Source: Eledone cirrhosa
Lineage: Eukaryota
Direction: 5' to 3'
Assembly: GCA_964016885.1 (NCBI GenBank)
Contig: OZ024763.1
Coordinates: 25,606,001-25,670,000, forward strand
Length of the DNA: 64,000 nt
The notes below the pieces were generated by a model. The model did no database searches. It saw nothing but the letters and a program-made list of their open reading frames with translations, and had not been told where the DNA came from. The stretch's first letter is position 1. Each line of letters opens with the position of its first letter. The position numbers and the translations under genes were made by a program. This document shows, one piece after another, positions 2,364 through 59,779 of this stretch.

Positions 2364-2429
2364 TATTTCATTATACATATTTCAGGGATACCATATTAAA
2401 AATATGGCATGCCTTCGTCAGATAAAATA
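2364..2429 (-). ncRNA. Minimal type-I hammerhead ribozyme (Penelope-type)
   Basis: Minus: stem I uauuuuau - CUGACGA - 14-bp imperfect stem II (aggcaugccauauu/aauaugguaucccu) - GAA-A - near-palindromic stem III (AUAUGUAU) - UA - stem I' augaaaua (8 bp, one G-U). Confidence 0.8.
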
Positions 2430-2651
2430 CAATATATAAACAGTTTTATAAATAATTTTGACGTACCATATTATAATCGACCATTATATTAGGAAGCTTC
2501 CTATGTATAATGAAATAAATATGGTTTTATAAATATAGTTTCCATTTGTTTAATATTGTGTGTGTGTGTGTGTGTGTGTGTGTGTGTGTGTGTGTGTGTG
2601 TGTGTGTGTGTGTGTGTGTGTGTGTGTGTGTGTGTGTATATATATATACAT

Positions 2652-2993
2652 GGAGGCACATGGCTTAGTGGTTAGACCATTGGCCTTGCAGCCAAAAGGT
2701 TGTGAGTTCAATTCTCAGACTGGGTGATGTGTTGTTTCCCTGAGCAAGACACTTTATTTCTCATTGCTCCAGTTTACTCAGCTGTAGAAATGAGATGATA
2801 GGACTGGGGTCCCTATCATTCCACTGCAAAGTGGTCTTGTAGGTGCCACGGAAAAAAAGCACCCAGCACTCACTGTAAATGAGGTTGGTGTTAGAAGGGC
2901 ATCCAGCTGTAGAAATAAAGCCAGAATCAGTTCCCATCCCACCCTTGCAAGCAGGGAAAAGTGGACATAAAATGATGATGATGATGATGATGA
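2652..2993 (+). mobile_element. SINE, same family as 4832-5170
   Basis: Colinear, highly similar full-length copy with a (gat)n tail. Confidence 0.8.
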
Positions 2994-3842
2994 TATATAT
3001 ATATATATATATATATATATATATATATAGGATGGTATGTCGTGTTCTTGAGAAAGTTGCTTCATTTCACATTGCTTTTCGTAATAAGACTGGGGGGGTC
3101 CCTATCATTAAAACACCCAAGAGAAATTCTACAAGATGCAACCCTGTTAGGGGGCCAGCTAAATTTGCATAGAAGGGAGCCATGTTAAGGGTTCAGTCCC
3201 TGCTCCATGAGACTATAATCAAGTGTCTTCGACTACAGCCTCAGTTTCATCAATGTCTTGTGAGTGGAAATTGGTAGATAATAACTGCAGAAGCCCGACG
3301 TGTGTGTCTATCGTCATCATTTCCGTTTAAACGTCAATTTTTCCACTATTACATGAGTTAGACAGGTCGTCCACACCAGGAAGCAAGTCCTGCCTTTGTT
3401 GGCCATGTGTCGCACCTTGCTCCAGCATGGACTGTAAATTTGGCTGGGTATTTTATAGCTGGATGCCCTTCCTAACACTAACCACATTTACACTGTATAT
3501 ATATATATATATATATGTATATATATATATATATATATATATATATATATATATATATGTATATTCATATATGTATAATATATAAGTATGTAAGTATGTA
3601 TATGTGCGTGTTTGTGTATATATAGCTTATGAAAGAATGATGCTAGAGCTGTGAAATCTTGCATGCAATAATTTTCAACTCTTATTATTAATAATAACTG
3701 CCTTGTTTCCATCTAGGGACTATGTTGAAAAATAAACCTCATTTGGTCATTCCATGAGAGTATCTTGGACAGCCTATGAACTTTTCAGCCGGCCTACGTG
3801 TGTGTCTGTGTCTCTCTCTCTCTATATATATATATACACATA

Positions 3843-4032
3843 CAAGAATGTCAGCTGAAAAGTTCATAGGCTTACTATAAAGGACTGATGCTAGAGCTGT
3901 GAAATCTTGCATGCATTAATTTCAACACTTTTTATTAGTCAAGGGACTAAGTTGAAAAATATATGTCATTTGGTCATTCCATGAGAGTATCTTGGTCAGC
4001 TTATAAACTTTTCAGCCTCAGCCGACCCTCAT
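3843..4032. mobile_element. mariner-like MITE
   Basis: TIR-like gtcagctgaaaagttcataggct ... agcttataaacttttcagc...gaccctcata in TA context. Related copies at 1-325 (tandem), 380-470 and 3625-3797. Confidence 0.65.
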
Positions 4033-4831
4033 AAATCACACCCACAAAGTCATTTTATCCGACCGACGCTCTACCAATTCCACCAACCACCACCACCCTT
4101 CCGTTATTATTGATTCAGAAATCAGCCCAGCAATGTAACAACCAGATGGTGTTCGTTAAGCAATTAAACTATTCAATCATAATTTAATCAGTTTAAATCC
4201 CAGACTAATTAGCAAAGTTAAGTGTCCACCCCCCCCCCCCCTCCCATCCTTACCTCTCTCTTTTTTGTAACTCAGGTATCAAATAACGATATTTCACTGG
4301 AGAACATGGAAGACTCTATAACTGGAGTGAGGGGGAAGCAGGCCTTTTTTTTTTAATTCTATTATTTTTTTATTTATTTTTAAACTTATTTGTTTGTTTG
4401 TTCTTTGTTTAATTTTTTTTTTAGTGTGTGTGTGGGGGGGGGGGGGGATCAGGAAGTTGGCTTGAAGTTCTCAGCACCAAATCAAAGTTGGTTTTAAGAT
4501 TCTTTACATTCATGTTGTAAACCAATTCAAAAAAGAAAATAAAAAAAAAAAAAGGCTTTTATATTCAAACTTGTTCTACTTGCATTTTAAAAGGTCAGGG
4601 TGAGGATGGGATGAGAGGGGGGGATGTCGTTTAATCTGTCCATCATGGCTGCCTGCCCAACAATTTATGATGTGTGATTTTATATATTAAGTAAAGACAC
4701 CATCCATCCATCAACATCATTCAATACTATGGCACACTTTCGTACTGAATCCAAAATATGATTTCTATATTCTATTTACCATTTACTATCATAGAAAAGA
4801 ATTAACCCTTTAGCAATTACATGGCTTAGTA

Positions 4832-56788: not shown

Positions 56789-59029
56789 CATCATCATCAT
56801 CATCATCGTTTAACGTCCATATTCCACGTTTGCATGGGTTTGGATGGGAGTTTTCCCACTTGAGGCAAGAGTGGTTGTCTTGCTCGCATAGGACTGTCTG
56901 GCGGGTTTTCTACGGCTGGATGCCCTTCCTAACACCAACCACATTTACAGTGTGGGGCTGGGAGGTTTTTACCGTGTTGCCTACACGGCCACATTACAGC
57001 GTGGACTGTCTGGCGGGTTTTCTACAGCTGGATGCCCTTCCTAACACCAACCACATTTACAGTATGGAACTGGGAGGTTTTTACCGTGTTGCCTACATGG
57101 CTACATTACAGCGTGGACTGTGTTTTTTTGTCGTGACACCTACACGACCTCATTTGTTTCGGCCTGGATGTTGTGGTACCAACATAACTTTACATTAAAA
57201 GGGGCAGTGTGGATGGGGTGGGGGTGGTGGGACGGGGGTGTATTTTGTTAGAGGTGCCTACTGACTGTAGTAGGTTTTACTTTGTATTTAGGCAAGGCGG
57301 GTCTTCTCTATTACTGAGTACCGCCAAAGATCTCGGTCCAGTGACATTGTCTTGGAGAGGTGTAAGTGTGTGAGGTCGGAATTTATCAAGTCGTCCCAGG
57401 TTTTTCTGGGTCTGCCTACTCCATGGCTACCGTCTATTTTTATCGCCCTGCACTTTTTTATACAGCTGTCGTCTTTCATGCGCATCACGTGACCGTACCA
57501 ACGTAGTCTTCTCTCGAGTAAACAACATTTGATCCCTCTTATTCCTAATTTTTCCCTTAGTTCGTTAATGCTTTGCCGTTCACGTATATTACTATTACAC
57601 ATCCAGCGGAGCATGCAAGCTTCGTTCCTCTCTAGTCTGCGTATATCCTCTGCACACAATGCCCAGTTCTCACTGGCATGCAACATTGCTGTTCGTATGC
57701 AGGCATCATACAGCCTGCCTTTCATTTTTAGGGAGAACCCTTTAGCGGCTAAAAGCTCTCTGAACTTTTTCCATCCAGTTCTGACTCTAGCTACTGTACT
57801 TTCAGAGCACCCTCCCCCACTGCTGATTTTGTCACCCAGGTAACGGAAGCTGTCCACTATTTCTATAGAACCCTCTGTGCAATTGAAAGAGCTAGTATTT
57901 TGTGGGCACTTGCACCAGAGCACCGGCCACATGTAAAATCTATGTTCTTAGTTAGCTTACCTGTGATCCCACTACATCTTTTATGCACCCATACTTTGCA
58001 TTTGGGACATAAAATGGAGTTTCTACCTATGCCTTTCCTACACACTGAGCATGGCCATTTCCCGGATGGGACCAGCGCCCTATTTTCCTTCCTACAAACT
58101 AGAACTTTAGTCTTAGCCAGGTTAATTTTAAGGCCTTTTGATTCTAGGCCGTGCTTTCATGTTTGGAATTTCTTCTCTAGTTCGGCCATTGATTCAGCTA
58201 TGAGCGTTAGATCATCTGCGTATAGGAGTTCCCATGGGCAGCCAATCTTGAACTCCACTGTTATAGCCTGAAGGGCAATAATAAATAGTAGGGGGCTAAG
58301 AACGGAGCCCTGATGAACACCAACTTTTACACTAAACTCTTCACTATATTCGTTGTTAATTCTAACCTTGCTCACTGTTTCTTTATACATGGCTTGTATA
58401 GCTCTCACAAGCCATTCATAGTTTTCTAAGAGCCCACCAGATAATGGAACGGGGGACTCTGTCGAAGGCTTTCTCCAAGTCGACAAAAGCTAAGTATAGG
58501 GGTTTACTTTTAGCTAGGTACTTGTAGTTGTCGTACAATGAAAAGAGCGTCTGTGGTACTTTTGCCTGACACAAACCCGAACTGCATTTCATCTAGATCA
58601 ATTCTCTCTCTGATTAGTTGCGCTATTACTTTTTCCGTGACCTTCATGACCTGGTTGATTAATTTAATGCCTCTATAGTTACTCCTATCTAGGGCATCTC
58701 CTTTACCCTTGTAACAGTTAATGATGATGCTGCTACGCCAGTCCTTCGAAACAACCCCATTCTGTATGACTTGGTTTACTATCCGGGTGACCATGGTGTG
58801 TCCCACCGTTCCAGAGACTTTCAGCATCTCAGCAACTATTTCCGAAGGCCCAGCCGCCTTACCCGTCTTCATATCTTTGATTGCCTTACTTATTATACTA
58901 CCTTCGACTAACACTGCTGGTCCCTCTATTGGGTCAATGTGGGGGAGACTGTCTTTCTCTCATTTATTCTCCTCATTTAGTAGCCTTTCGTAGTGACACT
59001 TCCAAGCTACCTTCTTATCAGCGTCAGTA
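56789..59029 (-). mobile_element. 5'-truncated RTE-clade LINE (RT with inserted PHD finger, 3'UTR, (GAT)n tail)
   Basis: Minus-strand peptides MKTGKAAGP, YKGKGDALDRSNYRGIKL, QFGFVSGKSTTDALF, GVHQGSVLSPLLF, LLYADDL, FRYLGD, RLRWYGHVMR and GRPRKTW, with frameshifts. (cat)n tail at 56789-56807. Candidate 16-bp TSD atatacacaccattat (56773) / atatacacattattat (59030). Confidence 0.92.
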
Positions 59030-59539
59030 ATATACACATTATTATACATACACCATTATATAAACACCACTATGTATACACCATTATATATCTAATCTAA
59101 TCTGGCTGAGTTTACACTTGCAAATAAGAAGAACCAGGGCAGCCCCTAGGAACATTGGATTTGGTGTACTTCAAAAAACCACACATGCATATTTAGTCGG
59201 CCATCTTAGAAAGAGAGAGAGATCTTACCAGTTTTAAACTAGTAAGTCCATTATTCAGCAGAGCACTCAATACTTATGATAGTAGAGTGTGATTATATCA
59301 GGGAGAGATGGAGCCCAACAACTAATTCCACACAGTCTGATATATCTATCTATCTATATATATATATTATATATTATGGAATACTGTTGGCTTTTTGCTA
59401 CAATGTTTTCTATACCTTTCATTTATATATATATATATATATATATATATATGTCACCAAACATACATATATGCACATATACATATATATATAATAGAAA
59501 AATTAAGAAGTTTTGTTTACATATAAAAGTTATTTATTG

Positions 59540-59644
59540 CATATTGACCCGTTACGTGTGTTTCATAGACGATTGGCTCAAGGTGACCCAGAGGAGTTAT
59601 GGACCCGACTCCAGTATCGATCTGCTCCTCAGACTGGTGATGTG
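59540..59644 (-). ncRNA. Hammerhead ribozyme motif (left arm of palindrome)
   Basis: Inverted copy of 59671-59779: cacaucaccagu - CUGAGGA - gcaga...ucuau - GAA-A-cacacg-U-A - acgggucaauaug. Stems II and III are somewhat degenerate. Confidence 0.5.
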
Positions 59645-59670
59645 ACAACAAAATATATATCTTTTGTTGT

Positions 59671-59779
59671 CATATCACCAGTCTGAAGAGCAGATCGATA
59701 CTGGAGTCGGGTCGGTCCATAACTCCTATGGGTCACCTTGAGCCAATCCTCTGTGAAACACGTGTAACGGGTCGATATG
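59671..59779 (+). ncRNA. Hammerhead ribozyme motif with extended/branched stem II (right arm of palindrome)
   Basis: cauaucaccagu - CUGAAGA - gcaga...ucugu closing a ~55-nt insert that contains a ggagu/acucc hairpin - GAA-A-CACGUG-U-A - acgggucgauaug. Palindromic stem III ACACGUGU; GUA cleavage triplet. Confidence 0.65.

Follow-up and report, generated by a model that had tools for sequence, protein, structure and literature searches.

Hammerhead motifs in two dishevelled introns of Eledone cirrhosa as probable ends of Penelope-like elements and of a retrozyme-like family

Minimal hammerhead ribozymes occur in the pseudo-long terminal repeats (pLTRs) of Penelope-like elements (PLEs), where they combine the catalytic boxes with a palindromic stem III and with U-rich 5' and AU-rich 3' flanks, and are found as dispersed singles from truncated copies and as opposite-strand pairs 100–700 bp apart (Cervera and de la Peña 2014, PMC4209133). 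PLE insertions have as further hallmarks an inverted 5'-truncated copy, a tail at one end and microsatellite targets (PMC8557442). Metazoan non-LTR retrozymes are non-coding head-to-tail units of 170–400 nt with GC below 50% and one type I hammerhead (PMC7229834; preprint 10.64898/2026.07.22.740005); their mobilization by PLEs was proposed in 2020 (Cervera and de la Peña, PMC7229834), and a 2026 preprint takes up the case for it (Li et al., preprint 10.64898/2026.07.22.740005), the arguments noted there being co-occurrence and homology to pLTRs rather than the anatomy of insertions. Here we analyze a 64,000-nt stretch of the Eledone cirrhosa genome (contig OZ024763.1, positions 25,606,001–25,670,000; hereafter the window), in which a preliminary description had placed at least seven minimal hammerheads within one intronic region, putatively of dishevelled. 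The motifs share the features listed above for PLE hammerheads and, as PLE hammerheads, their tails and the retrozyme–PLE link are already published, they are a further case of a known kind. We propose, with good confidence, that they are the hammerhead-bearing 3' ends of several PLE families, together with one tandem retrozyme-like family that was likely copied by PLEs, that they stand at background density, and that they are likely passengers without a role in the gene. The motifs and the insertions that carry them are:

2213..2559, minus strand: family A insertion, made up of the 3' end of a putative Hydra-like PLE (2213–2514) and a short inverted arm (2502–2559)
2364..2429, minus strand: family A hammerhead in the putative Hydra-like PLE pLTR, stem III AUAUGUAU, predicted cut after 2372; found by the descriptor and matching both direct repeats of locus L132
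23037..23102, minus strand: hammerhead of an A subfamily, 89% identical to A, U.U mismatch at the base of stem II; insertion 22856–23126
33970..34806, minus strand: family B insertion, a 5'-truncated, putatively Neptune-like PLE with a broken GIY-YIG remnant (about 34348–34796), 3' untranslated region, hammerhead and tail
34137..34179, minus strand: family B minimal hammerhead, predicted cut after 34141; found by the descriptor
35389..35537, minus strand: family C insertion with an inverted tail piece from 35530
35392..35462, minus strand: family C hammerhead of a putative Hydra-like PLE, stem III AUGCGCAU, predicted cut after 35400; found by the descriptor
44732..45065, plus strand: two-armed family D insertion in (TA)n, antisense arm 44732–44880, sense arm 44878–45065
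44893..44938, plus strand: family D hammerhead with 7-bp stem I, 4-bp stem II and stem III AUGCAU, predicted cut after 44931
59488..59891, no single strand: family E fold-back insertion with arms 59488–59658 and 59651–59891, a potential hairpin of about 157 bp on either strand, containing both E hammerheads
59547..59638, minus strand: family E hammerhead of the left arm, decayed, with mismatches in stems I and II
59677..59772, plus strand: family E hammerhead of the right arm, 65-nt stem II region, stem III ACACGUGU, predicted cut after 59766

At all seven sites of the preliminary description both boxes, CUGANGA and GAAA, are intact and in order, UH is present and stem I is open-ended, and the cores reported there were thus all recovered. 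Motifs were counted with a descriptor that covers stems I and II together with a stem III complementary to itself, in which a bulged base after A9 and single mismatches are allowed. It was relaxed after the published PLE consensus (PMC4209133) had been consulted and after a stricter first version had matched two of the seven sites; its thresholds are therefore tuned on the window, and the random-genome sample with decoy cores described below provides the independent check. Five sites pass (2364–2429, 34137–34179 and 35392–35462 on the minus strand; 44893–44938 and 59677–59772 on the plus strand), and for these the paired stems I and II claimed for all seven are retained; 23037 (U.U at the base of stem II) and 59540 (mismatches in stems I and II) are decayed and fail through mismatches near the core. 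Block dinucleotide shuffles of the window (2 × 200) gave 0.02–0.03 matches per window, with a maximum of one, and each of eight decoy cores gave none, so the comparison with shuffled sequence that the preliminary description had proposed came out in favor of the motifs. Stem III is predicted to pair with itself at -2.2 to -10.5 kcal/mol in 2364, 23037, 35392, 44894 and 59671, where it is palindromic as described, and does so incompletely in 34137 (AGAACU, +1.4 kcal/mol) and 59540 (ACACACGU, 4 bp only), where it is not. In an alignment of 18 family A and C motifs (3 from the window and 15 descriptor matches from other loci) both catalytic boxes are invariant, and 31 cells hold compensatory changes compared with 10.9±3.3 after shuffling. 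The seven motifs amount to six insertions, since 59540 and 59671 belong to a single palindromic insertion of 345 nt, one in each arm.

All the motifs are dispersed repeats; each query gave between 263 and 3650 first-look candidates, of which 40 were scored, and these figures are not copy numbers. In longer copies, families A, B and C continue into reverse transcriptase (RT) and GIY-YIG-type frames that lie between hammerhead-bearing terminal repeats (loci L132, L130 and L129 for A, B and C, respectively), with support from Pfam for B alone. The link to Penelope is thereby upheld, and the label of non-autonomous families gives way, for A, B and C, to one of 5'-truncated ends of protein-coding PLEs; it fits D, a clearly non-coding tandem unit, and may fit E, for which no open reading frame was found. 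All three coding families show 5' truncation, inverted copies, a tail at one end and AT-rich targets. Two classes of 3' end behind the predicted cut are clear in A (57 and 145) and C (31–43 plus a longer end) but weak in B, and are also present in family E (61–66 and 124–134), the queries for A, C and E having favored the long end on one arm. Of the 10,597 GIY-YIG candidates in the genome 150 were scored, and among 40 GIY-YIG loci no window family was tied directly to an open reading frame; it was pairs of family copies that supplied the connection. Separately, open PLE frames of 938 and 1096 amino acids were seen at L069:2809-5622(-) and L071:1775-5062(+), the former with RT and GIY-YIG domains by Pfam, and the descriptor found no hammerhead within the 8-kb stretches at either locus.

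Families A and C appear, as judged by motif, to be the ends of Hydra-like PLEs. Copies of family A (2364) are 97–100% identical over the full query and hence very young. At L132, direct repeats of the family lie 2979 nt apart around frameshifted RT and endonuclease (EN) frames that carry DKT, RWR, CxCx5C, CxxC and CxH motifs, and 4 of 12 A loci run into the PLE coding region. Family C surrounds a frame related to that of A at L129 (4 of its 20 loci are coding), shares an identical stem I with A, and encodes a protein 49% identical to that of A over 212 amino acids; the "about five unrelated sequence families" of the preliminary description therefore overstate their independence, and the evidence for a Hydra-like nature of C is limited to the linker and its homology to A. 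The Hydra clade is characterized by DKT, an RWK-like motif, a CxCx5C linker and CxxC/CxH in the EN (PMC8557442), and A and C have in common with it the unit of about 3 kb, C-terminal EN, (TA)n flanks, pLTR hammerhead, DKT, RWR in place of RWK, CxCx5C linker, CxxC and CxH in the EN, inverted copies and one-end tail. They differ in that the tail measures about 45–90 nt rather than the 30–40 bp described for the clade; the frames examined here are broken, and the likeness is by motif and not by phylogeny. The inverted arm of the family A insertion (2502–2559) takes in stem III as well as the 3' strand of stem I.

Family B would, also by motif, represent the end of a PLE of Neptune type. Over 852 nt the window copy shares 92% identity with the PLE locus L130, where inverted repeats of the family enclose an RT match that falls short of the Pfam cut-off (E 1.3e-4) and a GIY-YIG match that exceeds it (E 5e-5), and both copies contain the linker CIDKKCIIC (CX4CxxC) before the C-terminal GIY-YIG. 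The order RT then GIY-YIG, the CX4CxxC linker (within the clade's CX2-5CxxC pattern) and a DKS-G at the DKG position are shared with the Neptune clade (PMC8557442), to which B is assigned by motif alone, and its 3' ends belong mainly to one class. With CUGAAGA followed by an extra A, a G10.1–C11.1 pair, a 6-bp stem II and stem III AGAACU, the 34137 hammerhead matches the PLE consensus of PMC4209133 exactly in the extra base after A9 and in G10.1–C11.1. In A, C, D and E an A-U or G-U pair follows A9 directly; A, C and D mostly close stem II with such a pair and without the bulged base, unlike the consensus, and stems II are long in A, C and E (31–65 nt), again unlike the hammerheads of that report.

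Family D is likely a non-LTR-retrozyme-like unit copied by PLE enzymes, as suggested by its repeat structure and by the anatomy of its insertions. The unit comprises 323 nt with 42% GC, is non-coding (longest frame 73 amino acids), contains one type I hammerhead, and is arranged head-to-tail and in fold-backs; the non-coding head-to-tail unit with one type I hammerhead is held in common with the published retrozymes (PMC7229834; preprint 10.64898/2026.07.22.740005). Its copies are dispersed over many chromosomes as pieces of 1–3 units. We sampled 43 distinct loci (45 fetched, with two duplicates dropped). Two-armed insertions make up 37 of the 43, and 16 of the 22 loci that were found by a match without a junction; (TA)n adjoins 57 of 86 ends, compared with 8.4% of random positions; the predicted cut site is read through in all 43; and unit positions 107–137 or 153–169 account for 67 of 80 3' ends. 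The two end classes are coupled: where both ends of a two-armed insertion could be classified (26 of 37), 24 pair a short with a long end, two have two short ends and none has two long ends (P=5e-6). No poly(A) tail was seen in the copies examined. D departs from published non-LTR retrozymes in its short, two-armed insertions of 1–3 units with PLE-type ends and in a stem III that cannot close as a monomer; no pLTR parent was found. The hammerhead is predicted to fold correctly on its own and to lose stem I in a 632-nt context.

A plausible route to such insertions is provided by the PAc Poseidon element of Anolis, which in vitro nicks and extends both strands of AT-rich DNA, starts reverse transcription at two internal RNA sites whose spacing equals the genomic tail, uses uncut RNA as its main template and has a hammerhead that needs protein (Frangieh et al. 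2024, PMC11167929). By analogy, the GIY-YIG domain would nick AT-rich DNA on both strands, and the RT would start at two internal sites about 30–170 nt behind the ribozyme and copy through the cleavage site. Copying straight through this site implies a template that is either an uncut multimer or a re-ligated circle, and D may ride the same machinery from one or the other. Early termination would leave short ends, such that each motif in the window may represent an aborted cDNA. The two fixed ends and the read-through observed here fit the PAc account, as do the AT-rich targets, extension on both strands, uncut template and protein-assisted hammerhead of our reading; for PAc, however, the strands did not differ in start site in vitro, whereas D insertions with two arms nearly always pair a short with a long end. 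Stems III such as AUGCAU do not close within a monomer but pair with themselves, in keeping with the dimer model, and to cut, the ribozyme would need either to dimerize through its palindromic stem III or to be assisted by a PLE protein. The antisense arm of fold-back copies may block the ribozyme. Predicted pairing of stem I in long context is 0.0 for 2364, 35392, 44894 and both E arms, and is partly kept for 34137 (0.49) and 23037 (0.1); little cutting of pre-mRNA is therefore expected. In vitro activity of such PLE motifs is low (PMC4209133), and eight of nine Xenopus retrozyme dimers did not cut (preprint 10.64898/2026.07.22.740005).

To place the window in its genome, which is 3.0 Gb in size and rich in microsatellites, we applied the descriptor to 60 random stretches of 10 kb from 23 large contigs (600 kb). 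It matched 32 times in 17 stretches, while decoy cores gave 0–1 matches each. This extrapolates to one motif per 19 kb, or about 53/Mb and 160,000 per genome (bootstrap 90,000–240,000), in round terms 100,000–200,000. The five matches in the window compare with 3.4 expected per 64 kb (P(≥5)=0.26–0.27); the claimed frequency of roughly one motif per 10 kb is close to what we find (1 per 10–13 kb), but the density is ordinary against the background of about 1 per 19 kb (P~0.27), and nothing singles out dishevelled. Family A was matched 17 times in these stretches, C seven times and B four times, and D and E not at all. The estimated load lies far above the 2,000–9,000 per genome quoted in PMC4209133; 126,247 motifs are reported for the 28-Gb axolotl genome (PMC7229834; preprint 10.64898/2026.07.22.740005). 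At least six further hammerhead families absent from the window were also seen, several with short stems II of canonical size (L233, L238, L247, L252, L260, L266, L276, L278). A literature search returned no report of cephalopod hammerheads, subscription journals being mostly outside it; the PMC4209133 supplement file searched holds no cephalopod term, and supplements of PMC7229834 and PMC4209133 and the preprint tables may list such genomes.

The gene is dishevelled, as had been guessed, and lies on the minus strand; the window spans parts of two of its introns and not one intronic region. They are separated by one exon:

35819..35888, minus strand: dishevelled exon 2 (DIX positions 52–77; VVKEEI...VVSW) with AG...GT boundaries

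This exon divides intron 1, at higher coordinates, from intron 2; as exons 1 and 3 lie outside, the window consists of pieces of both introns. Exon 3 is at C24:25587740-838, on the same contig as the window, and exon 1, whose splice is in frame, was found on another contig of 96 kb (C1786, 26926–27093; L045, L136) and probably belongs in or near a 200-N gap about 20 kb beyond the window end (L135:332-531). Pfam, applied to 150 of the 363 unmasked open frames of at least 40 amino acids, returned RT and PHD pieces only; the DIX exon was not among these 150. In sequencing run X4, the kind of which is not on record, a 2166-nt contig matches 35819–35889 exactly, as a spliced transcript would, and further contigs overlie B, C and D, one of which has a back-joint of 323 nt at depth 5; as such contigs cannot show strand, level or circularity, they are not used as evidence. 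A 39-bp satellite array of about 5 kb occupies part of intron 1 (window 61340–64000, continuing into L133:1-2400). Two inverted fragments of long interspersed nuclear elements (LINEs), presumably of RTE type, with RT and a PHD-like finger, are 95% identical and 20 kb apart (36224–37255, plus strand; 57291–58959, minus strand). Broken frames at 40420–41390 (plus strand), for which Pfam gave no match, we take by motif to resemble a Tc1/mariner-like transposase. A very common fold-back repeat beside (TA)n (44550–44724, 38990–39101, 39664–39995 and 31311–31420) has PLE-like variable junctions without a canonical CUGANGA core, and matched 14 times over 60 nt in the 600 kb of random genome.

Among the 27 CTGA.GA sites in the window, two beyond the original seven are recognizable decayed hammerheads:

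30893..30944, minus strand: family F hammerhead with 6-bp stem I, stem III ACUUGAGU and an A.C mismatch at the base of stem II
37663..37725, minus strand: family G decayed hammerhead, U16.1 changed to C, with two related copies

Related copies over the family F motif occur at two other loci (L114, L243). Four CTGA.GA sites at 53462–53874 were rejected as hammerheads, having no paired stems. The region 53428–53874 is made of 103-bp tandem copies that contain CTGA.GA and GAAAC and derive from a short repeat common in the genome. Family E extends at least 500 nt upstream of its hammerhead as non-coding sequence into simple repeats, and in the loci read there was no return to its own 3' end as in a short head-to-tail unit. 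That E might be a miniature inverted-repeat transposable element (MITE), a palindrome of fixed centre, was rejected as largely an effect of ascertainment, since queries with one arm gave variable junctions and longer one-armed copies; the recurrent junction has an intrinsic short hairpin.

Several results weigh against the proposal that the motifs are PLE ends and PLE-copied units. The clade names are assigned by motif; Pfam matched neither the A nor the C frames; frameshifts or rearrangements affect the PLE copies examined for all three coding families; and the EN matches at 20 of 20 B loci arise partly by construction, as the query held part of the EN region. Neither D, whose comparison with the references of A, B, C and E yielded nothing meaningful, nor E, of which one in 30 upstream loci abuts a Hydra-like EN fragment, was found to have an autonomous partner. 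Doubly changed pairs in the A/C alignment number six, not above shuffles (75/500), and its rows are related and mostly descriptor-selected. Cleavage and D circles are themselves predictions. Finally, Rfam, which the preliminary description had recommended, yielded no hammerhead model among the matches listed for the whole window (150 of 305), which are dominated by microRNA models on microsatellites, nor in scans of four small regions (2364, 34137, 44894, 30893) at E<=5. The four empty scans, together with AU-rich stems and thresholds tuned on the window, could be taken to mean that the motifs match by chance, or are fossil sequences that at no time acted as ribozymes. We regard this as scarcely credible given five matches against 0.02–0.03 after shuffling and none for decoy cores, 32 against 0–1 in the random genome, catalytic boxes that stay invariant over diverged families and a pLTR location that agrees with the published position. 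For D, the absence of a PLE parent and the LINE fragments of the window, whose RTE label is presumed, would be compatible with a pLTR-derived satellite that was amplified locally in DNA by unequal crossover or carried by LINEs, and not copied by PLEs from multimeric or circular RNA. Local tandem amplification of pLTRs is discussed in preprint 10.64898/2026.07.22.740005. Such an origin appears improbable in view of the dispersal over many chromosomes as pieces of 1–3 units with inverted arms, the two fixed 3' ends, the (TA)n targets and the lack of a visible poly(A) tail.

The strand distribution raises the possibility of a host role, and also counts against a purely passenger status: seven of nine motifs, and six of seven single-orientation insertions (P=0.125), are on the sense strand of dishevelled. 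Some of them might therefore cut nascent dishevelled pre-mRNA and affect splicing or output, for example 2364 and 23037 as a cis dimer, two family A copies in intron 2 whose stems III can pair (-3.2 kcal/mol). We think this most unlikely: the strand bias is not significant, the density is ordinary, stem I is predicted to be blocked in 2364, 35392 and 59540, and 23037, 37663 and 59540 are decayed. Motif 2364 is 98–100% identical to dozens of dispersed copies, and is therefore a recent insertion. Domesticated intronic hammerheads of the amniote HH9/HH10 type are present in single copy and conserved between species; a hammerhead of this kind was rejected here, as every window family is a dispersed repeat. 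Equally speculative, and to be given little more weight, is the idea that long pre-mRNAs with several motifs of one family are cut as cis dimers or upon binding of PLE protein, which would make transposon activity a genome-wide switch of intron cleavage, with fold-backs supplying double-stranded RNA hairpins for RNA editing or silencing.

For dishevelled itself, the motifs most likely mean nothing. On the reading of PLE ends and a PLE-copied unit, the analysis contributes a genome whose hammerhead load is unusually heavy (estimated at about 53/Mb), along with very young Hydra-like PLEs, and its main residue is this genome-wide load together with the coupled two-end signature of D. The latter would provide anatomical support for the proposed mobilization of animal retrozymes by PLEs, and the coupling of short and long ends predicts, for an in vitro PLE assay, that synthesis on one target strand begins at a different site of the RNA from that on the other.

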